NCBI GenBank assembly: GCA_030704615.1
Contig: CM060732.1
Location: 62,868,001-62,932,000, forward strand
Source: Takakia lepidozioides
Lineage: Eukaryota; Plantae; Bryophyta
Direction of reading: 5' to 3'
Length of the DNA: 64,000 bases
Shown: piece after piece, positions 3,513 to 64,000 of the stretch
Layout: every line of letters starts with the position of its first letter
Position numbering within the stretch: the stretch's first letter is position 1
Notes under the pieces: model-generated
Databases searched by the model: none
What the model was told of the DNA's origin: nothing
Seen by the model: the letters and a program-made list of their open reading frames with translations, nothing else
Program-made: the position numbers and the translations under genes

Positions 3513-6239
3513 TCACCAATAATCCCCACAAGAACAAACCCCATCTTGGAAGTGATGAAAGCGGTTGGCATCCCGTACAATAACTGCTCGACCAACAATC
3601 TTTGAGATGAATTTGGTCGCCGTGTGGCAGTCACCACATACCCGAAGATTCTTTATGATGCGGATAGGTGTCCCGGGGTGAGTCCTAAATAGCCCAAACG
3701 CAATAGCCAGCTTCTCGCTGTGGTAGCTAAGGGAAATTTCCTTCTGCTCCTCCTCCACATCATGTAACACAAATCGTGTGTCAGGCACATACCCAGCCTC
3801 CTTCATCAGCCCAGCCAATCTGTTGAGCTCAGCATGTATTTGCTCAATTTGTGGATGCATTGTGTCATCTACAACAAACGTGTGCACCTGGTTGTCCACC
3901 TCAATGCAGCTGCACCCTGGCTCCTTCATGACACCTCTGTCCTCCATCATTTTCCTCACCTTTGCTTTGTGGTCCCACCTGCCAGCTGCTGCATAGATGT
4001 TTGATAGCAGCACATAAGCTCCGACGTCCTGTGGATCACTGTTGAGGACATTTTTTGCTGCACGTTCTGCTACCTTCACATTGCCATGAACTCTGCAAGC
4101 ACCAAGCAAGGCCCTCCACACCCCGGCGTCTGGTTCGACTGGCATTTGAATAATGAGGTTCTCTGCCTCATCCAATTGCCCTGCACGCCCAAGAAGATCC
4201 ACCATGCAGCCAAAATGCTCCACTGTAGGACTGACGCCATGATCTTGACTCATGGAATTGAAATAGTGACAGCCCTCATCCACTAGCCCCGCATGGCTAC
4301 ATGCAGAGAGAAGACATGTAAAGGTGATGCCATCTGGCTTCAAGCCTTCTTGCTGCATTTCTTTAAATAGTTGAAGGGCTTCCCTGCCACAGCCATTCTG
4401 GGCATATCCTGCGATTATCACACTCCAAGAGACCACATTTCGTTGTACCATACTGTCAAATACTTGGTGTGCATCCTTCATACTGCCACACTTTGCATAC
4501 ATGTCAGCCAGAGCTGTCTCCAAGTTAATATACGGCACAACTCCAGCTTTCCTGATGTCAGCATGGACCATTTTGCCTTTCTCTAGGGCCCCTACACTAG
4601 CACACGCAGTGAGAACAGAAATGAAAGTGACCGTGTCTGGTGTCAAACCTTCCCATGGCATTTGCTCATACATCTCGAAAGCCTCTTTACCACACATGTG
4701 CCAAGCATATCCTGCGATCATGGCATTCCATGAGACTACATCCCTTTGAGACATATTGTCGAACACTTGACGTGCCTCCTTCATACTCCCACATTTGGCA
4801 TACATGTTGATAAGGGTATTGTCTAGATTAATGTAAGACGCAATTCCAGCTTTCATGATGTCAACATGAACCTCCTTGCCCTTTTCCAGAGCTCCTAGGC
4901 TCGCACATGCATTAAGAACACAAATAAACATGACCCTGTCAGGCTTCACTCCTTTCTGTTGCATTTGCTCATACATCTCTAGAGACTCTCTACCGCATCC
5001 ATGCCGGGCATATCCGGCAATCATTGCACTCCATGAGACCACATTTTGTTTCACCATACCATTGAATACTTGACACGCATCCTTCATGCTCCCACATTTT
5101 GCATACATGTCAACAAGGGTATTCTCTAGAATTATATCTGGCACAATTCCACTTTTCCTTATGTCAGCATGGACCTGCTGGGCCTTTTCCAGAGCTCCTA
5201 CGCTGGCACAGGCATTTAGAACACAAGTGAACGTGACCCGGTCAGGTGTCACCCCTTCCTGTTGCATTTGATCATAGATCTCCAACGCCTCCCTACCATA
5301 CCCATTCTTGGCATATCCTGCTATCATTATAGTCCATGAAAACATATCTCTTTCACCCATTTTGTCAAACAGTTGGCGTGCATCTTCCACGCTCCCACAC
5401 TTGGCATACATGTTGATAAGGCTAGTCAGTAGAAAGATGTTTGGCTTGAATCTACTTTGGATAATGTGGGCATGCACCTGCTGTCCTTCTGCTAGGCTGT
5501 TCATCTTGATGCACTCCTGCAAGAGACAGACATAAGTACTGGAGTCTGGCCGGATGCCCTGTTTGTTCAAAGTGTGCAGGACCTCTTTCAGTTGTCCTGC
5601 CTTACATAGTTTCCTCACATACTCACAAAGGCCAGAAGAATTCTTGTTCACTCCATCTGTCGGTCCCATTTTAAAAGCAGTTGTGATGGTGGAGGTGCTA
5701 GCCCTGCTGACAGTTTGCTGTCCGAGATTCAACCCTGTCATCCTGTAGTCACAAAGATTCTTAGAAAGGGCACCTTTGCACTTGAACACATAGTATGTTA
5801 TGGATAGGATAGACAATAAAGAGAATTTTCTTGCTACATATTAGCAGGGTTATAGATCCAATGCAGTCATATACATTGTACAGATTCTATCTATTCGAGA
5901 TGGCTCTGACAAATCATCATCAAATAAATACCTGTTGTGGTCTTGGCCTAGAGCTCCATGGTCTTCATCCATATTAGAACTATCACCAAATTGAGCTCGA
6001 CCCCGTGTATCAGCAGATGCCTCTGCTTTCACCCAAGGAGGGTCCAACCACCTCTGAATCCGAAGGAACTCCTTGGTGTGCTTGTGTATGAAGTCTGGTG
6101 ATCTTGGACTTGTCTGGGAAAATATAAGTACACAGATGAGCTGCCAAAGCCTCGCCCACAGCCACAGCCTCACATAGACCCAGCCACAACCACCAACACT
6201 CCAAGCATCTTTCCAATCCAGGGACCAAACCTTGAACAA
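3513..6239 (-). CDS. PLS-class PPR protein with E1/E2/DYW domain (organellar C-to-U editing factor), intact
   Basis: PLS triplets (LVDMYAKCGS, VVSWNAMIAGY, PDRVTF), E domains, PG box KEPGCSCIEV, HSEKLA, CGDCH, terminal DYW. A phase-2 intron 5931-5743 joins an upstream exon (PWVKAE...QDHNR) in frame to MTGLNL. True start codon uncertain. Confidence 0.95.
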
Positions 6240-21590: not shown

Positions 21591-24500
21591 TCACCAGTAA
21601 TCCCCACAAGAACAAACCCCATCTTTGAAGTGGTGAAAGCGCTTCGCATCAAGTACAATAATTGCTCTGCCAACCATCTTTGAGATGAACTTGGTGGAGG
21701 TGTGGCAGTCACTACACACCCGAAGATTCTTGATGAGACGGAGAGGCGTCCTGGGGGACGTGCTGATCAGCCCAAAACCAATGGCCAGCTTCTCACTGTG
21801 GTGGCAAAGAGACAATTCCTTTTGCTCCTCCCCCACATCATGCAATACAAAACGCGTGTCAGGCACATACCCTGCTTCCTTCATCTGCCCAGACAATCTT
21901 CTCAGCTCAGCATGGATTTCCTCAATTTTTGGATGCGATTTGTCATCTACAACAAAGGTGTGCACCCTCTTGTCGACCTCAATGGAGCAGTAACCTGGCT
22001 CCTTTCTAACCCCTCTGACCTTCATCATATTTCTCACTTTTGCACTATCATCCCACCTGCCGGCTGCGTCATAGATGTTTGATAGCAACGCATAAGGTGC
22101 GGCGTCCTATTCATCCCACTTGAGAATAGATGTTGTCGCACGTTCAGCCATCTCCACATTGCCGTGGATTCTGCAGGCACCAAGCAAGGCTATCCACACC
22201 ACAGCATTTGGTTTCATTGGCATTTTTTCAATGAGGTCCTCAGCCTCATCCAATCGCCCTGCACGGCCAAGAAGGTCCACCATGGAGCTGAAGTGTTCCA
22301 GTGCTGGGGTGATGCCATGATCTTGACTCAGGGAGTCAAAGTAGTATTTGCCTTCCTCCACTAGGCCAGCATGGCTACACGCAGAAAGAACACATAGAAA
22401 AGTGATACTGTCCAGCTTCAGCCTTCCACTTGCATTTCTTCCAAAAGTTGCAGGGCCTCCATATCATAACCATGCTGTGCATATCCTGCGATCATGGCAT
22501 TCCAGGACACCACACTTCGTTCAGCCATATTATCGAACACCCCTTTGCATCCTCAATGCGCCCACATTTGGCATACATGTCCACGAGGGTATTGTTCAGA
22601 ATGGTTCAATACCAGCTTTGATGATGTCACCATGGACCTCTTTGCCCTTTTCCAGGGCTGCCAGGCTCGCACATGCATTGCAAACACAAACAAATGTGAC
22701 GTGGTCAGGCTTCACCCCATTCTGCATCATTTGCTCATAGGTCTCCAAAGCCTTCATCCCGCACCCCTGGTGTGCATATCCTGTGATCATCGCGTTCCAA
22801 GACACCACATTTGTTTCGGCCATATGGTTGAACACTCCCTTTGCATCTTCGATGCTCCCGCATTTGGCATACATGTCCACCAGGGCAGTGTTGACATCTG
22901 GTACAATCCCAGCTTTGATAATGTCACCATGGACCTCTTTGCCCTTTTCCAGGGCTGCCAGGCTCGCGCATGCAGTGCAAACACAAACAAATGTGACCTG
23001 GTCTGGTTTCATCCCTTCCCGCATCATTTGCTCATTTGCCTCCATCCCACACCCATGCTGCGCATATCCTGCAATCATTGCATTCCAGGACACCACATCG
23101 CGTTCAGCCAGATTGTCGAAAACTCCCTTTGCATCCACGATGCTGCCACATTTGGCATACATTTTCATCAGGGCAGTGCTCAGAAGGACATGTGGTACAA
23201 TTCTAGCTTTGATGATGTCACGATGGACCTTTTTACCATTTTCCAGGGTTGCCAGGCTCGCACACACATTGCAAACGCACATGAATGTGATCCGATCCGG
23301 CTTCACCCCTTCCCACATCATTTGCTCATAGGTCTCCAAAGCCTCCATCCCACACCCATGCTGTGTGTATCCTGCTATCATCACATTCCAGGACACCACA
23401 TCACGTTCGGCCATATGGTCGAACACTCCCTTTGCATCCTTGATGCTCCCACATTTGGCATACATGTCCACCAGGGTACTGTTCAGAATGACACCGGGTA
23501 CAATTCCCGATTTGATGATGTCACAGTGGACCTTTTTGCCCTTTTCTAGGGCTGTCAGGCTCGCACACGCATTGCAAATGCCAACAAACGTGACCCTGTC
23601 GGGCTTCACCCCTTCCCGCATCATTTGCTCATAGGTCTCCAAAGCCTCCATTCCGTACCCGTGCTGCACATATCCTGCAATCATAGCACTCCACGACACC
23701 ATATCTCGTTCAGCCATATTGTTGAACACTCCCTTTGCATCCTGGATGCTTCCACATTTGGCATACATGTTCATTAGGGCAGTGTTCAGAATGACATCTG
23801 GTACAATTCCAGCTTTGATGATGTCACCATGGACCTCTTTGCCCTTTTCCAGGGCTGCCAGGCTTGCACATGCATTGCAAACGCAAACAAACGTGATGTG
23901 GTTGGGCATCACCCCTTCCCGCATCATTTGCTCATATGTCTCCAAGGCACTCTTACCACACCCATACTTGGTAAGTCCTGCCATCATAATATTCCATGTG
24001 ACCAAACCTCGTTCAGGCAAGTTGTTGAACACTTGGTATGCATCCACGATGCTCCCGCACTTAACATACATGTTGACAAGGGTGTTGTGTAGAAACACGT
24101 TTGGCTTGAATCCGCTTTGGATAATGTGAGCGTGCACCTGCTTTCCAGCTTCCAGGCCTTTCATCTTGATGCACTCACGCAAAAGACATACATACGTATC
24201 TGACTCTGCTGAAATGCCTCCTTGGTATAAAGTCCGTAGAGCCTCTTTCAGTCGCCCTGCCTCACATAGCATCCTCACATGCCCAGAAGTGCCAGAGGAG
24301 GCATTGTGGACTCCCTCTCTTCGTCCTATTTCGGAAGCTGTGGTCATGGTGGAGGTGCCTGAATTTATCAACTGTGCTACTGCTGCTGCTTCCAGTTCAC
24401 CATCCACCCATGTAGGTTTCTTGTAGCTACCGATCCACATGGAATTATACGTAATCTTGTGATTGAAATCCAGCCCTCTTGGATGAATCTGGAACCACAA

Positions 24501-25179
24501 TCCATCCCGGCTCCTTCAGCTATCCCTGCCTCTGCACCAATAATCTATAGATCCTTGCCTTGATGCTAGAAGTTGACGGCCTAGACTGTTCTAGCAAGCA
24601 CCCCAACCTTACTTATCACACACAAGTTCCTATGCTAAATTGCTCCCAAGACTTTACAAATGTGCTGGGGAGAGAGAGGATGACAATTTCCAAGAAATCT
24701 TTGGGAGGAATATTGAAGTCTGCTTCTCTCTGTAACCTTACAGGCACTCACCTTTTTGCCTTGATTGTCCCACCATGGACTAAAGTGTGAAAGATATTTA
24801 TTCCAAAGATTCTCCTCGTCTCTGTCATCTTCTTTCGGATACTTTCCTGTTGCCACATTGGCAGTAACATGTCATAATTACTCCAAACAACCAAAGATCC
24901 ACCCCATGAGCTTGGAGAACTCAAAATGAAAATTCAGGGACGACTCTGATAAGAGGGCAAAACTGGCCAAAATATGTTGAAGAAGCAGGTGTCCTCACCA
25001 CATTGTCCTTCACCTTGTGTCATGAATGCGGCTAGCTTTTCTTTCACCCACGGAAGATTCAACTGACCATGAACCCAAAAGGACCTCTTGTGTGAGCTGC
25101 TTGTGTCTGTAGTCAGGTGATCTCCGATTTGTCTGTGACAACCACCACGGTGCAGCTCAGCAGCCAGAGATTTAAACAC
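21591..25179 (-). pseudogene. PLS-DYW PPR pseudogene
   Basis: PLS array ORF 22596-24500; frameshifts at about 22430-22620; in-frame TAG at 22107-22109 (Gln in the paralog); DYW domain still intact (HSEKLA, CSDCH, DYW); upstream PWVK module at about 25000-25100. Confidence 0.88.
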
Positions 25180-40953: not shown

Positions 40954-43723
40954 TCAATCAGCACTCTGCTTGAGAAGGAAATTTTCTGCATCCCACTTGA
41001 GAAGGCATTTTGCCACACGTTCTGCTACGTCCACATCACCATGAATTCTGCAGGCACCAAGCAAAGCCCCCCAGACCGAAGCATCTGGCTCGATTGGTGC
41101 CTTGCTAATGAACTCTTCTGCCTCATGTAATCGCCCTGAGCGGCCAAGAAGGTCCACCATGGAGCCCAATTGCTCCAATGTAGGAATGAGGCTATAATCC
41201 TGAGTCATAGAATCGAAGTAGTGACAGCCTTCCTCAACTAGGCCCACATGGCTGCATGCAGAGATGACAGAAGTGAAGGTGATACAATCCGGATTGAAGT
41301 CTTCCTGTAGAAATTTTTCAAAAAGTTGGATGGCTTCTCTACCACAACCGTGCTGTGCATATCCTGTGATCATCGCATTCCATGAGACCACATTTCGAGT
41401 AGCCATTATGTCAAACACTCGGCGTGCATTGTCTACACTTCCGCACTTTGCATACATGTCAACGAGGCTTGTTCCCAAATAAACATCTAATGAGAGTCCA
41501 GCTCTGAGGATGTCAGCATGGACCTGCTTGCCCTTCTCTAGGGCACCCAAATTGGCAGATGCATTGAGAATACAAATGAAAGTGACATTGTCAGGACTCA
41601 CCCCTTCCCGCTGCATTTTCACATAGAGTTTAAGAGCCTCCTCACCATGCCCCTGCTGAGCATATCCTGCAATCATTGCATTCCATGAGACCACATCTCG
41701 TTTGGCCATTTTGTCGAACACTTGATATGCATTCTGCGAACTCCCACATTTGGCATACATGTCAACAAGGGTTGTCTCCAAGTTAATATCTGGCACAATT
41801 CCCGCTTTGATGATATCAGCATGGACCTGCTCACCCTTCTCTAGGGCCCTAAGGCTGGCACACGCATTGAGAACACAAATAAAGGTGACCTTGTTGGGTT
41901 TGACCCCTTCCAGTTGCATTTGCTTGTACATGTTTAAAGCCTCTACGCCATGCCCATGCTGAACATAGCCGGAGATCATTGCAGTCCATGAAACAACATC
42001 TCGCTTGGCCATCTTGTCAAAAACAACACATGCATCCTTTACACTCCCACATTTGGCATACATGTCAACCAGGTTTGTCTCCAAAATCATATCTGGTGAA
42101 ATTCCAGCTCTGATAATGTCTGCATGAACCTTTTCACCCTTTTTAAGGGCTCTCACACTGGTACACGCAGTAAGAACACAAATAAATGTGACATTGTTGG
42201 GCGTCACTTTTTCCCATTGCATTTGCTCATATATTTTCAAGGCCTCTTCCCCATGCCCATGCTGAGCATATGCTGTGATCACTGCATTCCATAAAACCAC
42301 ATTCCGTACAGCCATTTTCTCAAACACTTCATGTGCATCCTTTGCACTCCCACATTTGACATACATGTGGACAAGGGTTGTCTCCAAAACAATGTCTGGC
42401 CCAATTCCAGCTTTGATAAAGCTAGCATGGACCCGCTGGCCCTTTCCCAGGGCTTGTAGGTTGCCACATGCATTGAGAACACAAATGAAAGTAACCCTGT
42501 CAGGCATCATTCCTTCCCCTTGCATTTGCTCATACAATTTGAGAGCATCATCACTATGACCTTGCCGAGCATACCCTGCAATCATTGCATTCCATGACAC
42601 CACATTTCGTTTGGCCATTTTGTCAAAAACTTGCCGTGCATCATCTACACTCCTGCATTTGGCATACATGTCAATAATGGTATTGTCCAAATCGACATAT
42701 GACCCAATTCCAGCTTTGACGATGTCAGCATGGACCTGTTTGCCCTTTTGCAGGGCTCCTAGACTGGCACAAGCATTGAGAACACAAATGAATGTGACCC
42801 TGTCAGGCATTACTCCTTCCATTTGCATTCGCTCATATATTGTGAAAGCCTCCTTGGAGTTTCCATGCTTGGCATACCCTGCAATCATCATAGTCCACGT
42901 GAAAATATCTCGTGCTGACATTTCCTCGAACACTTGGCGTGCATCCCCCATGCTCCCACACTTCATATACATGTTGACAAGTGTATTGACTACAGATATT
43001 TTTGGTGTAAATTCACTTCGAATGATGTGGGAATGCACCTGCTTTCCCTCTGCCAGGGCTTTCATGTTGATGCAGCTCTGCAAGACACATACATAAGTGT
43101 TGGAGTCTGCACAGAACCCTGGGTGGTCCAGAATATGCAGCGCCTCTTTCAGTCTTCCCTCCTTACACATTGTCCTCACATCCCCACCTGCACTACACAT
43201 AATTTTGTTGACTCCCTCTCTTGGTCCTCGTTTAGGAGTGGCACTCGAAGTCGAAGTACCACCACTCAGATGTCCCACCGTTTGTCCTCTATGTAAACCT
43301 GTCATCCTGCATGACTCAAAAATGTCAACGATAAAGTTTGTTTCAATCCAACTTCATATTTCAAGATACCCAAAGACACGTATCCTCCGAGGACAGCCTT
43401 TCCAGGAAAATCCAACAGCACTGCGGTAATTTGATCCACTCATAGTTGAAACAATCATCATTCCAAGAACAATACCCGATATATTCTTGGCCTGGAGGTC
43501 CATGCAGCTCACCAATAATAGAACCATCACCAGCCTCTGCTCTACCTTGTGTCATGGCAGCTAGTTCTGCTTTCACCCAAGGAGCATTCCCTGAACTCTC
43601 CATCCATAGGCCCTCCTTTGTGCGCTTATGTTTCAAGCTTGGACATTTTGAAAGATTCTGTAAAAACGACCTGTGTGTGCAGTCAGCAGCTGTAGCTTCA
43701 AGCAAGCCTACCACCCTTATCAT
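40954..43723 (-). CDS. PLS-class PPR protein truncated within the E region (no DYW)
   Basis: Open 783-aa PLS array ending ...AKCLLKWDAENFLLKQSAD*. A phase-2 intron 43475-43307 joins the upstream PWVKAE exon in frame. Confidence 0.85.
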
Positions 43724-52754: not shown

Positions 52755-54360
52755 ATCAAAGAGCTAGAAGACTGGTTGGGCTTTTGGCACTTCAGATACA
52801 GACAGTGGGGTGCCTTCATGACCGCTGTAAGTTTGACTCATACTACCATGATTTTCAATTCTTCTTATATATATGGGGGTGTGCACCAGCGGCCTTGCTA
52901 TCCAGTCCAGTCCAGTTGAATACTGCTCCACATAACAGTGGCATGTGTGTGGCATTTACCTACAGAATATGTCACTGGAAGACATTGCGGATATGCCATC
53001 TTGCAATCTCGCGGAGACTGTTCATAGTATGTGGATGGCGCAATCTGGTAAGAACGGCCGGAACCTTTACGTTGCAACTGCAGATGACCTTATCTGTGCT
53101 CTTTCGCAACAAACAAAGTACCGAGACTTCCTCAGGGGATGGGATGCTGGTAAGGGGCCGGACAGGACAGAGTTGCTGCTCAGGGCTGCTAACAGATGCA
53201 AGCATCCTGCAAAAATGGCGCGGGCTGTTAACGAGTACACGATTGGAACACCTTTGCAGTCCAGGCTCCCACATCTGGAAGGTGAGGAGAGATTCGGATC
53301 ATGCAAGCGCAAACTGGACACCCCTCCAGGATCGGCGGGTGACTCCCATCGGCATGATCGAGATAATTTCTCCATACCTCGTGTGCCTGTGCCACCCAAT
53401 TTCGGATGTACTACTCCATCTGTGGATGCAGGTTGTTCTGCAGATTTCGATGCAACATATGCCACAGCTCCGGCACGGGGAGAAGGACGGACGCTGCTGC
53501 CGGTTGAGGAGACCGATTGTGGTGATGCAATGTGGCACATAGAACGGACTCCGAAAGGATCGAAAGTTGGTTGTTCTACTATCAGGGCACTGTCTTTTGT
53601 GAAGTGCACAAGTAAAATTTGCAGAGGCGCTGGCGGGACTCCAGCACCGACATTCACAGGTTTGTTCAAATATTACTCAGCGCGGGAGTCTAGACCTCAC
53701 AAGTTCTGGTTCTGCCCCGATGACATTCAGCATTGTGTGATGGGGACTTGTCGGGATTCAGTCATCAGCAAGCCTACCATCCCTGTCGTCTGGCCAGTCA
53801 AGGTCGGAACATCTCTCTCCAAACAAGAGATTGACATGCTGGAGGATGCAGGGTTTCGACTTCCAAGAGGCCCAACAGTCCTAACACCAACATCATCTCG
53901 TGGTACGCCATCCGCATTCCCTACACGTCCACCACATGGGAACGACTGGCCAACGAAAATGAATGGAAAACCGGTTCGTCGTATTGAGGCAGGTGCAGAT
54001 AACCAGTGCAAAATTGAGTCTGCGAGAACCCTGCAGTGTCGGGTTGCCCAAATTGTGAATGTCCCCCCTCCAGGCTATGGGTGGGTGTACAATATGGTGA
54101 CTTTGGGATCGGTTCTTCATGATAGGACTTATGAGATTACTATTGGGAATTTTCCTAATTGCACATGCCCGGACTTCGACAACACGATAAACAACTCCAT
54201 TGGAAAGAGATGTAAATTTGTTCCATGCAAACATCTTTACTACATCTACATTCACAGGATGTTTTGTGATCCTCAACGAGACACGTGCATTCACCAATGC
54301 ACAATGGGTCCTAGTGACGTTCAAACACTTCTGCAGAGAGATAGGATAGTTGACATCTGA
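52755..54360 (+). mobile_element. MULE-type transposase, C-terminal half with SWIM zinc finger
   Basis: KELEDWLGFWHFRYRQWG | intron | DMPSCNLAETVH (putative catalytic E)...YEITIGNFPNCTCPDF...CKHLYYIY. Confidence 0.75.
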
Positions 54361-54418
54361 TGTGTTTTCTCGGAGTTCTGTATGTGTCAATGACTCCACT
54401 ATGTTGAATTACTTTGAT

Positions 54419-54811
54419 ATGCTCCACTATCGCGAGTTCACCAATGTTTCTTAATTTGTCCACTATTGGAAATGAGACCAGTCACTCTTCATGGATCCAC
54501 TTTGCTCAAGTAACCCAACCTTTCCCCATTTTTGGGCTTTTATTTATTTTATTTTATTTTTGTCTTTTATCGTATTTGGTGAAATTCCATTGTCCAAACA
54601 GGGCATGGGATTAAGATGCCGTTGACGACATCTTAATTAGTGCTTCCCTGAGCAGGATTACAGTTCCCCCCTATGGGTCTCTCCAGACAATCTTTTTTTA
54701 TATGCTCCACTATCGCAAGTTCACCAACGTTTTTTAATAGATCCACTAATGCAGTCACTCTTCATGGATCCACTTTGTTCAAGTAAACCCAGGCCTTTCT
54801 CCATTTGGGGC

Positions 54812-54849
<38 letters not shown>

Positions 54850-55059
54850 TGTGATTGATCCTGTTTGGTGAAATTCCCATGTTCAAAGAGGGCAGGGGAT
54901 TAGATGCCGTTGACGACATCTTAATTCGTCATTCCCTGAGAAGGGTTACAACTTCCCCTATGATTTTTTCCAGGCCACATTTTTCTTCTTGCAACGATTT
55001 TCATGGGTTCATTTCTCATGTTGAGCTTGCGATTTAAGATGTCGTTGACGACACCTTAA
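54419..55059. repeat. About 285-bp tandem duplication with three 26-bp palindromes
   Basis: Units 54419-54672 and 54702-54960; TTAAGATG(C/T)CGTTGACGACA(T/C)CTTAA at 54611, 54900 and 55034. Confidence 0.85.
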
Positions 55060-55089: not shown

Positions 55090-56330
55090 GGAGACATGCT
55101 CATACAGTCCTCCATAGTCACCACCATGCTCTGATAGTCTGAAACATGACATTTGCTTCCCTTTCTGTGGTGACATCTTTGTATAGACGACATAGTCGCA
55201 GGTGCTCCTCTTGCAACTCCAATTTTATGGAATTTTTTGTGTGCCATCGAAGGGACTGGGTCCAATGAAAGAGGCAAGTGCGTTCCCGGCCTTGCATTGG
55301 TATTTTCGGGTCACCAGAGCCAAACACAGTCCGCACAACATTTCAATTAGCTTGTGCGCTGTCTGCCATGAACCTTGTGAAATTTGCATTTGGCAAACCA
55401 TGAACTCTCATGACGTTAACTAGAGCCTTCCACATAAGAATTTGGCACTCTGTGTCCTCCGACTGCATGTCACAAACAACAATAGTCATAACTCGCTGGT
55501 ACGTATGATCATACACATGACAGGCCATGGTCGTCCAATCCTTCACTCGCTTCACGTGATCAAACATTACCCAGGACTTATGAAGATCACCCCCGGCCTG
55601 CATTCTACGCACCAGGCTAACTCCAGAACCCTCCGCAACTGAGGACATCTTGAACAAATATACTTTTTGGGACCCTTGTCCTGGGAAAACACTGTCTTGG
55701 ATGAAGTCGTATCGACTTCTGCGCTTCAATTCTAGGATGCTATCTACGTATCATTTGTTGCCTGCCCCAGTCCTAAGGACGACGTTGATTTGATAACGAG
55801 CATTTGGATAAGTCAATGTTGAGAAATGGTCTATCACAAAGTTAAGCGATGCACTATCAAACTTAGTCGTTGTCTCCTCCGACTCCCCTAGCAGATGTTT
55901 CTGTAGGAAGCCTTTGCTTGTTGCCATAGCAATGGCTGATGGTGATGCAGGGGGAGCATTTTGAAATTCTTGCTGAAGCAGCGAACGCACTGTGTCAACA
56001 CTCTCCCTGCAATCTCCTTGCGACACTGGATGTGCATGGGTGCCAAAATGGATACAAGCCCGTGTGAGGTGGTTGATACGGTGCAGTACGTAGTACATTT
56101 GTGCATTGCATTCCGCCATGCACTGTGGCACGACTTTACAAAACTTGCAAACGACGGAACTGCTCTTTGGAGGAGCATACCTTACTTGAAATGGGTTGTC
56201 GCAGACTCCTTCCCACTCCGTCTCATTTTCCACACCGGCCATTTGGAAATGCTGGCAATCCAAATTTGCACAACGTGTCGCGCACCTCCCTTCGGTAAGC
56301 TCCCCTTCACGTCCTAGTTACTCGCTTGGA
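55090..56330 (-). mobile_element. MULE-type transposase, N-terminal half with GCM/WRKY-like zinc domain
   Basis: CKFC...C...RACIHFGTHAHPV; WVMFDHVKRV...FMADSAQAN*NVVRTVFG...CLFHW (CxxH)...IRAWW; stops and frameshifts. Confidence 0.75.
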
Positions 56331-56433
56331 TGCGCGCGCCGACTCCCCAACGGCCGCGGGCCAACTTGGAGCTTCGGTGCCGCACCGGGACATAACGGTC
56401 CCCCTTCGCTTCCCACTAAACCCTCCCCCTATT

Positions 56434-56933
56434 NNNNNNNNNNNNNNNNNNNNNNNNNNNNNNNNNNNNNNNNNNNNNNNNNNNNNNNNNNNNNNNNNNN
56501 NNNNNNNNNNNNNNNNNNNNNNNNNNNNNNNNNNNNNNNNNNNNNNNNNNNNNNNNNNNNNNNNNNNNNNNNNNNNNNNNNNNNNNNNNNNNNNNNNNNN
56601 NNNNNNNNNNNNNNNNNNNNNNNNNNNNNNNNNNNNNNNNNNNNNNNNNNNNNNNNNNNNNNNNNNNNNNNNNNNNNNNNNNNNNNNNNNNNNNNNNNNN
56701 NNNNNNNNNNNNNNNNNNNNNNNNNNNNNNNNNNNNNNNNNNNNNNNNNNNNNNNNNNNNNNNNNNNNNNNNNNNNNNNNNNNNNNNNNNNNNNNNNNNN
56801 NNNNNNNNNNNNNNNNNNNNNNNNNNNNNNNNNNNNNNNNNNNNNNNNNNNNNNNNNNNNNNNNNNNNNNNNNNNNNNNNNNNNNNNNNNNNNNNNNNNN
56901 NNNNNNNNNNNNNNNNNNNNNNNNNNNNNNNNN
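56434..56933. other. Assembly gap (500 N)
   Basis: Run of N. Confidence 1.
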
Positions 56934-59900
56934 GGCTCATGCATGGATCTGCTATCATACCATCCGCATCCCGATTGACCAACCCTGTCGATGCACAACC
57001 TGAAGGTCATACTCTTGGAGTATAAGTGCCCACCGTGCAAGCTTCCCCCGTAAGCTTGTCTGACTCCATCACCACTTGAGTGGCTGGTGATCCGTGACAA
57101 GGTGAAAAGATTGCCGTATAGATAGCCACCTGAAGTGTGCCCCGGACCCACACTGCAGCTAAGCACTCTCCTCATATGAGCTGTACTTACCTCTGCAGCG
57201 TTGTTCGAGCGGCTAGGCGTAAGCCACTACGAACTCTCTTCCCTCATCATCCACATGTGTGAGCACCGCTCCAAGCCCCAGCATGCTCCAATCCAATATG
57301 CAGCTGAAAAGGACGCCCCTGATAGGTCGTCTCAAGATATGCGCCGAGGTCAACCTCGCCTTGAGCTCTGAAAAAGCTCGTCCTGGCTCATCTTCCATTG
57401 CCACTCCTGGTCCACCTTGTCAGCGTGGTTAGAGCCCTTTGCCAATGGTACTAAATCCTTGACAAACGTCTATAAATAGTTTGCCAACCCCATGAAAGCT
57501 CGAACTCGCTCACATCCGTGGGGCGTGATTTTGTGCAATGGCCTCTACCTTAGTTTGCTGTACCCCAATCCTCCAGGATATATCATGTGACCCAGATACT
57601 CAATCTGGTTGTGGAAAAACTTGCACTTCCCCGTGATTGCAACTTCAATCCGTGCGCTCTCAAGCGCTCCAATACCACCTGAAGGTGTCTCTCATGCTCC
57701 TCCATCGTAACACTAAAGATGATGATGTCATCTATGTAGCACCGAGCAAAGTCCACCCCTGCTAGAATCCTATCCATGACTCTCTGAAACTCTGCAGGAG
57801 CATTCTTAAGCCCAAATGGTAAGAACCGCCACTGGTATAGGCAATCCTTGCCGTGCTCATTGATCCCCCAGAATGCCGTCTTCTGCTTGTCCGCCTCCTT
57901 GATTGCAACTGGTGATATCCGGATCGTAAATCCAAAGTGCTAAAGGCCTTAGCATGCCCGATGGCATCAAAGATCTCCTCTGGTGTTGGCATGGCATACT
58001 TACGGACTTGTCTGACGATTTTACAGGCCGGTAATCACCGCACATACGTCTCTCCGTCCAATGCCATAGACATCCTTCTTGGCTGGCATCACTGTGGCTG
58101 AAGCATACTCTCCACCAGAGAGCTCTACCAAACCTGCCTCCCAGAGATCTTGAGTCCTCATCTGATCAAGACCTCTCCATGTCACTGTATCTATAGGGTC
58201 TCCGAAAGATTGGCGTGTCAGTGGCCAACTCAATACGGATCTCTTGACCCTTCAGTGCTCCCAAGTCCTTCAAACTGAAGGCAAAGCAATTCCGTAAGCC
58301 CTCAGGAACCGCCGTATACGTCGTCTCTCTCCTCCGGTGACAATGGTCCAATGTCAGGCTCCCAATGTCCTCCGTAACTACACCTTAAGTCCAGTGGGCT
58401 TAGAGGTAGATGACTCGTCCCGTGGTTGCTATGCTGCACCTCTTGGCATTACTCCTAACCTCTCAGACAAGGCATCATCTGCCCTGCTCTTAGGACAAGT
58501 CATCTCATCCTTGAGGACCTCCTCAACTCGAGAAGAATCCCCAACCTCATCCATCACAGCCGCCTTGGCTGCCAACTCCCTCTGAACCTCGAGCACCTCC
58601 CACGTGTGCCATGGATGCATGCACCCCGTGGTCCTCATATGCTCGCCCCCACTCACTGCCTGTACCGTCTCGGTAGGCAGAGAGACCATTGAGGGAAGTG
58701 TATTCCGCACTCTGCGTTGCTCAGCTAGAGCCAAGCTGATAATCCAGGTCAAGCAATTGAGATCCATTGCTTGCCCCAACACTTGACGACGTGATGCCTC
58801 AGAAAAGACGACACCGCCGTGGTACCAGTGGTAAAACCCATTGCCCTCTCACGCTCGTCAGCATTAGGCTCCACTAACTGCTGCACTGAGCATCCCACAG
58901 GAGGCCAGGTCCACTATCCCGGAAAGCATGCGATCCTGGGAAGCTGAGGCAGTGTAGGTAATGCTGCTCGTGGTTGACCCACCTTGTTGACCACTGGCAA
59001 AGGCGAACGGTCATCGTGTCTCACACGTTGAGACTGCCTCCCTGTGTCCAGAATGTTATCCACTGTGAGATGTGCTGGCCGCTGCACCCCATCAAATGCA
59101 CGCTTGAGCAGTGCGGGTGGCATCATGTTTGTCCACCATAGCCGTGGACGATGAGCCCGTGACCCCACTGTAGCTGCATCTAGCAACACTGCTGACCCAA
59201 GCCACGACCGGACTTGATGCACACTGGCCATCACCCTGGCCCGAATCGCCATCAGTGGCACATTCTCCAAGATGTATGCTGAGATACAGCTTGATGAAGC
59301 TGCAAGTGGCGCAAAACCCGCCCATCTCCCAAAACAGACCCGACCTCGAGTCTCGCAATCCATTGCCATGCCCGGCTGATGAATGCCCTTGGCAGGGCCA
59401 ACCTGCCACTACCAGATCAATGGAGCCAACCCGCTCCAAATCCTGCGCCCCCAGCAACGAAATGTCTGCTGGCAAGGCCTGCTGATATCCACGAATGCAG
59501 ACACCGACAACAACTCAGGGTACCGCTGCACAACAAGAGCAACATGGCGAAGTGAAACGCGTCGTGCATCTCATCCCTCTCCACATACAGGTAACCGAAC
59601 TCGTACACCTGCTTGTAACACAGCAGCCAATCCGGTGCTGATCCCGCCAAACAAGTCCAGAAGACAAATGCCTTCATCCGGATACTGCCACACAATAGGT
59701 GTGGTGTCCAATGGAGACAATTGAGGTGGTCCTGGTGCAATCCCCACACTCTCCTCCTCTCCTGACGGTACAAAAGCCTCCACCCAGGCTTGTTGCACCC
59801 GTCGATCAGCATCCCGCTGCAAATCCTTGCTCGTGCCCCACAATGGAGTCTGAGCAACCATGGTAGGCAACTCCGCCATACCATACATGTCATCTTGCTC

Positions 59901-62572
59901 TCCGGAGGTGGTACATCCTCTGAATGAGCATTGCCCTCAAGCAACTCTCTAGGCCAACTCACTGCCGTTGTGAAGCTGCTAGTGTCGGCATCTTGCCTCG
60001 CTGGGCAACCGCAACTCCTCCTATGAACGTCACAGGGAGCTGCACACGCCGGCCCTCCCCTGACTGCCATGCAGGCCTATAGGAAGCTGATTCCTCCCAA
60101 AAATCCAGGGTGAAGCCCATGGGGTACAACACTGCCCCACCAACCAGGACATCGTATGAGACTGCGTCTGTCACAATGGCCTTGGCTCGCATCACTGAGC
60201 CATCTGTAGGGTGATCCGGCCGTAGTCTGATAGCCAACTCATGCCGTGTCATGCCCCGAGCCTGCTCCGATCCTCCCAAGACGTCTGTATCTGGAAAGGA
60301 CAAGGCTCCATATCCGCCTCCGTGAGGCCCAAGCCTGCAATAGCAGCTCTGCCCAGCATCAATGGCTGAGCTCCCGAGTCCAACAAGACCCGCAGTGGCC
60401 GGTACCTCTTGCCTGCCGGTCCACTCAAACAGAAAATGCCATCCTGGTTGTCTAACATGACAACTCCAGGTGTCACCATGGCGCGCTCAATGGCTGGCCT
60501 AGCTGGCAGCTCCATCAACCTGGCAGCTGCAGCTTGCCATGGCGCCGCCGTGGCAGTCTTGACCCTCAAATCCGAGGATCCCTCCGGCACTACACCTCCT
60601 ACTATCTCCGCAGAAGATGAAGTAACCTCCCACTCTCACAGAGTGTAGCTGCCAGCCTGAACACCTCAGCTGGTCTTACCCCCGGCGTCGCAATCATGGT
60701 AGCCGAGAACAATGGAGCCTGGCACACAGATGTGGCCGCTCCTAGCAGCACACTAGCTGCCGTAGCCTTGGCAACACTAGGTAGTGGTGCTACCCGTGTA
60801 GCTCTCCCCAATGGCATAGTAACCTCCGCCTCGGTAACAGTCGGGCGAGAACTAGGTGCCATGGATGGCGTCGACACTGTCTCCGCCAATGTGAATGACT
60901 GAGGAAGCCTAGCCTGACGGCTTGCCTCCCCACGCTGTGGATCCAACTCCACCTCTGCACCTCGTGGCTCAGGAACTCGTGCTGCTCCTCGAGTCACGGC
61001 TGCAGCAGACTCCACCTGCACTAGTGGTAGTGCTGCTCCACTCATGAATCCCATGCCTCCCATATCTCCTCCCTCAGGAGCAGGAGGTGGACCATCCGGC
61101 CTTAGAGCCGGTACCACCTGAGCTGTAGCCATGGCAGCGAGCCTCTGCTCTAGCTGCTGAAGCCGTTGGCCATGCCTTGGTCACACCCTGACCTCCGCGT
61201 CCTTGGCCACGTTGAGCTTGCCCTTGGCCTGCACCTCGTGGCTGGCCACCTCGTCCTCTCTGGGCTGCTCCACCTCGCCCCCGGCCACCATTGTTCCCTT
61301 GGAACTGGCCTGGGCGCAACTCAGGATGCAAACTATAACACTGGGCCTCTCCATGCCCGTGCTTGCCACAATGCCCACACTGCAACTGTGCAGGCTGTGC
61401 ATGTGCCGACCCTCTGGGCAATCCTTCTTGACATGGGGTCCTCCACATGTCCAGCACACCACATCCGCCCGTTGTTGGCCAGCAAATGAAGGGAGAGACC
61501 CCTGCATTTGAGGTCCTCTCTGTCCTTCCTGAGCTTCACCTGAGCCCCCTTGTTGCCTTGAGCACGTTGAGGTAGTGGTTGGCTAGGAGCACCACTACCC
61601 CGTGGTGTCTCCTTAGCAAATCCCACCATGACCACTTGTTCCTCCACCATGTTGAGCTCTATCTGCTCTGCCAGCAAAAACACATTTGCTAAGGTGGGTT
61701 GGGCCGCTTGTAGGAGAGTTGCATCCCGCACCCTTCTCCTCAGCTCCTTGTCCAATATCCCATACCAGAATTGGACTGCCTGAGCTTCCGTAACCCCTTG
61801 GGTTACATCTATCAAGCGCCTCATGCGAGTGAAAGCCTCCCTCAAGCTCTCGGTCGGCTTCCGTTGGAACTCTTGCAAGCTCCGCAACTTCTCTGTCCTC
61901 ACCCCTTGGTAGTTCCCTCTCAACTCTTCGAAGAACTCCACAACAGGGTTGAAGGCAGGCACGGGTGCTAGTGCTGGTGCGGTAGTGGCTTGGGTGGACG
62001 TCGTAGCTACTGTACCACCAGTCCCACTGCTGCTTGCTGAAGCTGCCGGTGCAGCGGCAGGTGTAGCCACTGCCCTCGTGGCTCTAGTGCCCCTAGTGAT
62101 GGAGACATAGTCGGGTGACCAGTACATCCTCCACTCCTCGATCTCAACCTCATGCCCCCGCCTGAACTCATGGTAATCATCCATAGGCGGCCCCTCAAGG
62201 TGCTGAAACAGCCCTTTCCATGCCATGAACGGCGTAAATAGTTGTGGATTGCGCATTTGCTGCAAATCACACCAACTATCAAACTCTTGGATAAAATCAT
62301 CCAACTCAATGGTGCCCACCGCCCCAGAGTATCTTCGTGGCCCCTTGGTAGCTCCATACATCTCCTCCATTGTGTCCCACAATAATGGCAAAGAAACAAC
62401 TTGCATCGCCGGTATGAGCCCTCCTGATTCACAATCCGAATCAGAACATTCCGTGGAAGACACAGGAGGTGAAGGTGGCCTAAACCGCACACCTCGTCTC
62501 GTGTACCCACTAGTATCGCTAGTGCTCGAACCGGCACTGTCCCCAGCACTAGTGGCACCTCCGTGTTGACAT
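56934..62572 (-). mobile_element. Ty3/Gypsy LTR retrotransposon internal region: gag - protease - C5 DNA methyltransferase - RT - RNase H (integrase and LTRs not in view)
   Basis: Gag with two zinc knuckles (CWTCGGPHVKKDC, CGHCGKHGHGEAQC), protease LLDSGA (60380), RT CGDYRP/LDLRSGYHQ/PFGLKNAP/YIDD (57738), RNase H DWSMLGLGAVL...VAYASR. Many 1-bp frameshifts. Confidence 0.93.
58740..59680 (-). pseudogene. C5-cytosine DNA methyltransferase domain embedded in Gypsy pol (frameshifted as assembled)
   Basis: Motif I LLDLFGGI (59652), motif II YVERD, motif IV AGWPCQGHS (Cys codon 59394-59392), motif V RSGLF, motif VI LENV (59267), motif VIII AHRPRLWW, motifs IX/X ERERAMGF...LGQAM. Confidence 0.92.
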
Positions 62573-62864
62573 TCAACCGGTCATGAACATGTCCCTAACC
62601 CCCTCTCCACAAGGTAACCGGGTAGAGAACCTGTTGCGGCTTATGGTTTGGAATACTAAGTTCCTAACATAGCCTACACCTGAACTTGCATGACCATGGG
62701 AATATCATGAAGATACTCCTCAAACCGCCCTCCACGAGCTTCAAAATTCGGCCTTCCAGACCACATGCCAGTCCTTAGTCCACCAGTGCCTCCACGAGTC
62801 AGCACAGGCCATCCACAGGTCAACACGGGCCACCACAGACCAGCACAGGCCCACACAGCTCACT

Positions 62865-64000
62865 GGTCACAGCCGTCACAGTCCCACAGGCCACTGGGCA
62901 CAGCCTGTCACAGCCCCTCACAGCTCGTCACAGCCTCAAAGGCCTCAGGCACAGCCTGTCACAGCCCCTCACAGCCGTCACAGCCCCAAAGGCCATGGGC
63001 ACGGCCTGTCACAGCCCCTCACAGCCCGTCACAGCCTCAAAGGCCTCAGGCACGGCCTGTCACAGCCCATCACAGCCCCAAAGGCCTCAGGCACGGCCTG
63101 TCACAGCCCCTCACAGCCCGTCACAGCCCCAAAGGCCTCAGGCGCGGCCTGTCACAGCCCCTCACAGCCCGTCACAGCCCCAAAGGCCATGGGCACGGCC
63201 TGTCACAGCCCCTCACAGCCCGTCACAGCCTCAAAGGCCTCAGGCACGGCCTGTCACAGCCCATCACAGCCCCAAAGGCCTCAGGCACGGCCTGTCACAG
63301 CCCATCACAGCCCCAAAGGCCTCAGGCACGGCCTGTCACAGCCCCTCACAGCCCGTCACAGCCCCAAAGGCCTCAGGCGCGGCCTGTCACAGCCCCTCAC
63401 AGCCCGTCACAGCCCCAAAGGCCATGGGCACGGCCTGTCACAGCCCCTCACAGCCCGTCACAGCCTCAAAGGCCTCAGGCACGGCCTGTCACAGCCCCTC
63501 ACAGCCCGTCACAGCCCCAAAGGCCTCAGGCACGGCCTGTCACAGCCCCTCACAGCCCATCACAGCCCCAAAGGCCTCAGGCACGGCCTGTCACAGCCCC
63601 TCACAGCCCGTCACAGCCTCAAAGGCCTCAGGCACGGCCTGTCACAGCCCCTCACAGCCCGCCACAGCCTCAAAGGCCTCAGGCACGGCCTGTCACAGCC
63701 CCAAAGGCCTCAGGCACGGCCTGTCACAGCCCCTCACAGCCCATCACAGCCCCAAAGGCCATGGGCACAGCCTGTCACAGCCCGTCACAGCCCCACAGGC
63801 CTCAGGGCACAGCCTGTCACAGCCCCGCACAGCCCGTCACAGCCCCAAAGGCCATTGGGCACAGCCTGTCACAGCCTGACACAGCCCGTCACAGCCCCAC
63901 AGGGCACAGGGCACAGCCTGTCACAGCCCATCACAGCCTCAAAGGCCTCAGGCACGGCCTGTCACAGCCCCTCACAGCCCATCACAGCCCCAAAGGCCAT
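62865..64000. repeat. Tandem array of 51/41-bp units built from 10-bp (nncacagccc) subunits
   Basis: Consensus ggcacggcctgtcacagcccctcacagcccgtcacagccccaaaggcctca; continues past the window end. Confidence 0.97.

Follow-up and report, generated by a model that had tools for sequence, protein, structure and literature searches.

Why would a retrotransposon carry the kind of enzyme that normally silences it, and where in its coding plan does such an enzyme sit? These questions are raised by a 64,000-nt stretch of the genome of the moss Takakia lepidozioides (assembly GCA_030704615.1, contig CM060732.1, forward-strand positions 62,868,001 to 62,932,000; hereafter the window). Its minus strand carries at 56934-62590 a Ty3/Gypsy element encoding Gag, two zinc knuckles, protease (PR), a C5 DNA methyltransferase (DNMT), reverse transcriptase (RT) and RNase H (RH), in this order and without introns. 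A first-pass annotation of this DNA had described a land-plant Ty3/Gypsy element with a methyltransferase inside pol. The parts it named, protease, methyltransferase motifs and RT, ordered on one strand and intronless, were all recovered by Pfam and by frameshift-aware alignment. The placement inside pol, however, is inaccurate, due to a conserved stop codon between DNMT and RT: the DNMT is the last domain of open reading frame (ORF) 1. Since ORF1 proteins end after the DNMT and the conserved stop precedes RT, ORF1 is Gag-PR-DNMT, and ORF2 is RT-RH-integrase (IN)-PHD.

All eight full-length ORF1 proteins that were fetched (1280-1331 amino acids) have the order Gag-zinc knuckles-PR-DNMT and end shortly after the DNMT. 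Among 64 related metagenome loci the DNMT-RT junction is visible in 45, and in 44 of these a stop (TAG or TAA) lies in the frame of RT; in the remaining one it is shifted by one base from that frame. The single open PR-methyltransferase-RT frame that the first-pass annotation had envisaged is therefore not what these relatives encode, a stop separating DNMT and RT in 45/45 junction loci. CAA-CC or CAA-CT follows the stop in all but two of the 45. In the window the stop is TAG (58431-58429), continued by CAA CCA to 58423, and the nine bases 58423..58431 (minus strand) form a predicted readthrough signal of the CARYYA type. The relative L036 has the same TAG CAA CCA, and L061 has TAG CAA CTA, which also matches CARYYA. 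TAG CAA CC/CT is common to three families with saturated synonymous sites (pS, the proportion of synonymous differences, 0.67-0.83). TAG plus CARYYA occurs at one of 55 TAGs in the window element and at one of 74 in L036, both times at the DNMT-RT junction; elsewhere in the window the figure is 7 of 1271 TAGs. In tobacco mosaic virus (TMV), CAR-YYA is sufficient on its own for readthrough (PMC2194720). From this context, it is likely that Pol is made by readthrough of the UAG-CAA-CCA stop.

Domain limits in the window copy were set by frameshift-aware alignment to intact relatives, with P0024 as reference for ORF1 and L036 for Pol. Pfam E-values were taken from single unbroken frames, in which Gag and protease are recognised weakly. 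On the minus strand, the ORF1 N-terminus and a Gag capsid-like domain occupy 61621..62590 (PF03732, E=0.001, under the Pfam cut-off). Gag aligns at 62343-61621 with 75% identity to P0024 Gag over 217 codons, and the start of ORF1 is uncertain, with candidate ATGs at 62590, 62584 and 62572. Two CCHC zinc knuckles of the nucleocapsid (61323..61456, by alignment to relatives) are followed by the aspartic protease (60022..60542; PF13650, weak at E=0.019; 65% identity to P0024), which lies on the ORF1 side of the stop and has its motif LLDSGA at 60386. The DNMT3-like C5 cytosine methyltransferase (58705..59672; PF00145, E=4e-8) contains eight frameshifts and no stops. Its motifs are unchanged and in canonical order, namely I LDLFGG at 59660, II YVERD at 59587, IV GWPCQG at 59403, VI ILENV at 59273, VIII RAHRPRLWW at 59159, IX ERERAMGF at 58856 and X LGQAMD at 58779. 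A poorly conserved C-terminal tail (58432..58704; 40% identity to P0024, 26-60% among intact relatives) completes ORF1. ORF2 comprises a pre-RT segment and RT (57593..58364; PF00078 (RVT_1), E=1e-18; 78% identity to L036 Pol), with RT aligned at 58210-57593 and YIDD near 57741, and an RNase H (56953..57566; PF17919 (RT_RNaseH_2), E=1e-8; 15 frameshifts) that is cut by the contig edge. An assembly gap of 500 N (56434..56933) occupies the expected place of integrase, PHD and 3' repeats; integrase and both termini of this copy lie beyond readable sequence, and relatives continue IN-PHD-polypurine tract (PPT)-B-A-B, A and B denoting the repeats. Upstream of gag, a tandem array with a 51-nt period and ~23 copies (62867..64000) probably belongs to the 5' untranslated region of the element. 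Contig depth at 62600-64000 is for the most part comparable in order of magnitude with that of the coding region. The array is CpG-poor with 67% GC and consists of short TCACAGCCC-like units.

Which type of methyltransferase does the element carry? Among solved structures, DNMT3A is the best match of the L036 DNMT domain (E 1e-11). The AlphaFold model of this domain, calculated with a 75-row alignment, has a pLDDT (predicted local distance difference test) of 96.9; the fold is alignment-based, with a pLDDT of only 31.6 from the single sequence. Its top Foldseek matches are DNMT3A/B/C (E 1e-19) at ~21% identity. The catalytic Cys, the Glu of ENV and the arginines of RxR are nearly invariant across the 75 sequences. 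Judged by sequence and modelled fold, the enzyme is DNMT3-like and non-permuted with intact catalytic motifs, and its activity is predicted. The first-pass assignment to a non-permuted DNMT3 type thus holds, as the motif order is canonical and DNMT3A/B are the best matches both by sequence and by fold. DRM enzymes have permuted motifs, and MET1 and CMT have BAH or chromo companion domains. Due to the canonical order and the lack of any BAH or chromo Pfam match in the intact ORF1s, an identity with plant DRM, MET1 or CMT was rejected.

The DNMT is conserved like the other functional parts of ORF1. Identity among intact ORF1s is 71-82% for DNMT, 71-80% for Gag, 61-78% for PR and 32-67% for the linkers. 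Between families the proportion of replacement differences (pN) in the DNMT is 0.19-0.26, compared with a saturated pS of 0.67-0.82. Within one family, 43 de-duplicated Sphagnum-type copies from 58 loci were compared. Singleton changes in their DNMT are neutral (pN/pS 0.99), while changes found in at least three copies are depleted in replacements, with pN/pS 0.61, or 0.32 without C>T/G>A; the corresponding values for RT are 0.39 and 0.08. The DNMT is under purifying selection, about as constrained as Gag or protease, and the dN/dS comparison proposed in the first-pass annotation therefore speaks for constraint, both in the low pN against saturated pS and in the depletion of shared changes.

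The window element belongs to a Ty3/Gypsy lineage that is abundant and has close relatives among mosses and liverworts. Relatives with 62-72% identity over most of the query occur in Marchantia polymorpha, Calypogeia fissa and Riccia sorocarpa, and the clusters of DNMT relatives have members from Sphagnum jensenii and S. troendelagicum. Gene models of M. polymorpha lie on chromosomes 1, 2, 4, 5, 6, 8 and V, with full-length ORF1 models such as Mp_5g06330, Mp_4g09160 and Mp_Vg00370. The 64 loci of the metagenome scan are mostly 69-92% identical to a Sphagnum protein, and nearly all have the same domain order. Word-based searches gave 23 DNMT and 55 RT matches, among them no named protein of a vascular plant or of Physcomitrium. 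The prokaryotic genomes searched contain no relative, and the viral contigs searched contain one distant methyltransferase and no Gag relative. A complete RT-RH-IN-PHD protein of this lineage, P0366, comes from a transcriptome assembly, and given this protein some member of the lineage is probably transcribed.

Quick trees, from which near-duplicate rows and short domains were excluded, place the window inside a bryophyte-type set in both cases, with 28 rows and support 99 for RT and with 14 rows and support 98 for DNMT. In the RT tree, a 66-row set (support 96) with the Klebsormidium elements also includes two RT-DNMT rows and a frog Gypsy on a long branch; in the DNMT tree, the PR-DNMT elements are unresolved at the base. 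Most likely the lineage came down from streptophyte algae and represents the land-plant branch of the KnitGypsy-Dnmt3 kind described from Klebsormidium nitens. The comparison of RT and methyltransferase trees with charophyte elements, as suggested in the first-pass annotation, thus nests the window among bryophyte-type elements, and its land-plant Ty3/Gypsy claim is borne out by the presence of Gag, PR, RT and RH and by three PLS-type PPR genes in the window that best match land plants.

Could the DNMT nevertheless be present in this one copy by chance or through a nested insertion, or the contig behind the gap be an algal contaminant? The element borders directly on an assembly gap, and frameshifts abound in this copy. 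Yet a DNMT likewise occupies the slot between PR and RT in dozens of loci and in liverwort and moss assemblies of chromosome scale, the DNMT is under purifying selection, both trees place the window among bryophyte elements, and the same sequencing runs cover both sides of the gap. Due to the family-wide layout and the tree placement, both objections, which the first-pass annotation had itself raised, fail, and we regard such an origin as hardly conceivable. The damage to the copy probably has a different cause. Alignment to relatives reveals 37 frameshifts but only two internal stops in the window copy, and 27 of the frameshifts look like losses of 1 nt; the metagenome relatives show the reverse ratio with 64 frameshifts and 397 stops in four domains. 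Frameshift density rises towards the contig edge (17, 7, 7, 3 and 3 per kb), and at many of the frameshift sites other contigs of the host have the other allele. Because of the few stops beside many frameshifts, the crowding at the edge and the other allele in host contigs, we consider the frameshifts to be probably assembly errors in a young copy; the 1-nt losses, however, are not enriched at doubled bases (18/27 vs 0.70 background), which weighs against this explanation. In run X1, 57,683 contig records match window positions 55500-64000, and summed depth is ~8,000-33,000 in the coding part, whereas the first two bins before the gap have 82-817. This contrast shows a large and diverse family and is not to be read as an estimate of copy number. 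A 2173-nt contig of run X12, which may be an RNA run, spans the DNMT-RT junction and was kept out of the arguments on expression and splicing.

The ends and the mode of integration can be described from relatives. Integrase follows RH in L036, L049 and P0365, and three complete relative Pol proteins have rve and H2C2 integrase domains and a PHD finger at the end. In these three Pols no Chromo match was found and the C-terminal PHD finger stands instead, so that an identity as chromovirus was rejected. A DIRS identity was likewise rejected, as relatives have rve and H2C2 integrase domains with 4-bp target site duplications (TSD) and no tyrosine recombinase. A link to Troyka was also rejected, Troyka elements having CG...CG ends and a 3-bp TSD and occurring in animals. 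Full-length Sphagnum-type loci are organised as A...PPT-B-nn-A-B with TG...CA ends, and a 4-bp TSD is present at 5/5 distinct full-length sites. In eight loci the B-nn-A joint consists of two inverted ends that abut across a spacer of 2 nt. The final A/B joint joins both expected cDNA ends, with two sites keeping extra primer-site or other sequence, and three loci end with a single B. The loci used for these repeat junctions were L026, L034, L040/L041, L049/L056, L051, L057 and L060 for the 3' repeats, and L013, L015 and L030. The A/B joint resembles the junction of a circle with two long terminal repeats (LTR), and in L040/L041 primer-site sequence is kept.

Ordinary reverse transcription would give BA...BA, whereas a circle cut at B-nn-A gives A...BAB or A...B, in our model from a 2-LTR or a 1-LTR circle, respectively. 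These junctions make us lean towards a DDE integrase that acts on circular cDNA; the single-B forms could alternatively result from recombination between two B copies. In nine of 15 loci (L020, L037, L040, L043, L049, L050, L051, L058 and L060), 9-11 of the 11 nt after the 5' A complement a segment 31 nt below a TATA box. The primer-binding position is thus complementary to the predicted start of the transcript, as it is in self-priming of the Tf1 type.

What would an element gain from a methyltransferase in this position? We propose, with somewhat more confidence than doubt, that a Gag-PR-DNMT3 ORF1 is translated, that Pol arises by readthrough, and that the DNMT is packaged in excess and methylates the element's own cDNA. 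Most ribosomes would stop after the DNMT, and a minority would read through into RT and integrase. The DNMT would then be produced as abundantly as the capsid, far in excess of a single cDNA; a high enzyme dosage is predicted from its position before the stop. The element protease likely frees the DNMT from Gag, with co-packaging into the particle. That the cDNA is C5-methylated before or during integration has, in our view, an even chance; a methylated new copy would arrive pre-marked like host chromatin. Far more tentatively, and rather doubtful as a whole, circular-cDNA integration at the internal abutted-end site, tRNA-free priming, DNMT3 at capsid stoichiometry and pre-methylated insertion, possibly PHD-steered, might be combined in one lineage of DDE-integrase LTR elements old enough to span algae and bryophytes. 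If true, the element would write its own epigenetic mark, and would do so along a new route of replication.

Several observations weigh against the proposed course from readthrough to cDNA methylation. The Sphagnum type has CAA CCC, with five of six CARYYA bases, followed by an in-frame ATG, and TAA in 11 of 32 de-duplicated copies, the latter plausibly from G>A decay. No stable RNA structure was detected 3' of the stop (z -1.3 to +1.1). In the window copy, indels just past the stop hide the register of RT, and in L036 a further stop separates PR from DNMT. Nor does the stop before RT occur throughout: DNMT and RT share one frame in 7/150 distant relatives, including Closterium gene models. 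The DNA context of the stop is known from the window and the metagenome loci. Shared changes are less constrained in DNMT than in RT (0.32 vs 0.08), and changes that occur in just two copies are not depleted (DNMT 1.47). The CpG observed/expected ratio (o/e) of the element, 0.54, is above that of the host PPR genes (0.36-0.37); CpG depletion is absent and there is thus no scar of self-methylation. Both tree roots hang on long branches, with no plant cellular DNMT3 among the rows. Finally, the algal KnitGypsy-Dnmt3 enzyme gave no detectable methylation in yeast, a result that its authors call inconclusive (PMC5890265).

Some of these points could be accommodated by other explanations. In the same element, Pol could be translated from a spliced message, with TAG as 3' splice acceptor, or by re-initiation at a nearby ATG, the DNMT remaining on the Gag side. 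The T-rich run before TAG and the ATG two codons after it in Sphagnum-type copies would fit, as would several Pol-only gene models that begin shortly before a conserved WEP motif, and the case of Tca2 shows that local readthrough does not necessarily follow from a stop in frame (PMC2194720). However, in the window and L036 families the stop is not directly followed by an ATG, and three saturated families all preserve the frame and CAA-CY, a conservation that neither splicing nor re-initiation would need; we hold this route to be improbable. Somewhat less improbable, though still unlikely, is that the DNMT is kept for another role, be it methylation in trans of resident copies or host loci (self-restraint), RNA modification or binding, or a structural or decoy function. 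Gag-level expression would far exceed the enzyme need of one cDNA, the missing CpG depletion and the lack of yeast activity of the algal enzyme agree with such a role, and de Mendoza et al. also considered self-restraint and RNA roles (PMC5890265). On the other side stand the near-invariance of the catalytic C, E and R residues, a fold of the DNA-type DNMT3 and the finding that the retrotransposon Dnmt3s of Symbiodinium methylate CG de novo (PMC5890265). Packaging of the DNMT and methylation of the element's own cDNA therefore remains the explanation that we favour.

In the remainder of the window, the three PLS-class PPR genes lie at 3513-5840 (-), 21591-24515 (-) and 40954-43353 (+), with 303-bp repeat periods. 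Two have DYW ends; one gene is intact with DYW, one is split and one lacks its end. Proteins labelled as Ginkgo and proteins of Sphagnum, Calypogeia and Diphasiastrum all match their PPR-DYW region at 63-71% identity. An ORF of 474 aa (52936-54360, +) contains a weak SWIM finger; together with a broken Cys/His-rich ORF (55343-56317, -) it probably represents a Mutator-like transposon, and a 270-bp direct repeat (54413-54669 / 54696-54958) lies between them. No tRNA genes were found.

DNMT-bearing Gypsy elements are thus common in liverworts and peat mosses, contrary to a 2019 hypothesis paper according to which land plants 'such as tracheophytes' lack them (PMC6338049). The Marchantia models make our opening question, why a transposon carries its normal silencer, testable in a genetic model plant. 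Element copies also inflate DNMT counts in bryophyte annotations. In the literature searched, with most subscription papers and Repbase outside it, no description of bryophyte DNMT-Gypsy elements was found. Sarre et al. 2025 speak of 'streptophytes', and their tree figures may include Marchantia copies (PMC12344493). The survey of de Mendoza et al. included Physcomitrella, and Marchantia and Sphagnum did not appear in those of its supplement files that were searched (PMC5890265).

Compared with known systems, DNMT-bearing retrotransposons were described in dinoflagellates and a charophyte, and the idea of cDNA self-methylation was already proposed by de Mendoza et al. 2018 (PMC5890265); a 2026 preprint reports DNMT-bearing LTR elements in Cymbomonas and Euglena. 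SymbioDIRS-Dnmt3 of Symbiodinium also carries a Dnmt3, with de novo CG methylation in yeast, but is a DIRS element with tyrosine recombinase and, according to the paper, an independent acquisition (PMC5890265). In Green-algal-type Gypsy elements with the order RT-RH-DNMT-IN-PHD, such as the pol of Scenedesmus sp. PABB004, a related DNMT (35-44% identity) and the C-terminal PHD of the integrase recur, but the DNMT lies between RNase H and integrase and is truly inside Pol; 75/150 matches fit this order, and P0081-P0221 represent a large group of such polyproteins. Their rows form a separate clade of the DNMT tree (41 rows, support 97), the label 'algal' being based on one named protein. Cellular DNMT3A/3B are the best matches by sequence and fold, but at ~21% identity and with no PWWP/ADD here their specificity is not transferable. 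An in-frame stop between structural and enzymatic frames is shared with MuLV, SIRE1, Tca2 and TMV, the latter with CAR-YYA (PMC2194720); unlike in these, protease and an accessory enzyme here lie upstream of the stop, and there is no hairpin or pseudoknot signal.

The closest likeness is to KnitGypsy-Dnmt3, likewise a Gypsy element, whose Dnmt3-like domain is intronless, non-permuted and under purifying selection and whose DIRS-like A-coding-B-A-B repeats correspond to the layout of the full-length Sphagnum-type relatives (PMC5890265). The paper places its DNMT in the Pol ORF (PMC5890265), whereas here the DNMT ends the Gag ORF before a conserved stop. Two adjoining K. nitens models on one 7497-bp contig, KFL_013780020 (zinc knuckles-PR-DNMT) and KFL_013780010 (RT-RH-IN), have the same domain order and the same split as the bryophyte elements. 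We infer that KFL_013780020 is KnitGypsy-Dnmt3, and the Pol-ORF wording may reflect annotation, the K. nitens models being split at the same place. Closterium gene models read PR-DNMT-RT. The bryophyte elements differ in their land-plant hosts, high copy number and a DNMT with 37% identity to the K. nitens protein. The element is a land-plant variant of the known KnitGypsy-Dnmt3 kind. What it adds to this kind is a DNMT placed in ORF1 before a predicted readthrough signal, a wide occurrence in liverworts and mosses, and junctions that point to a circular intermediate.

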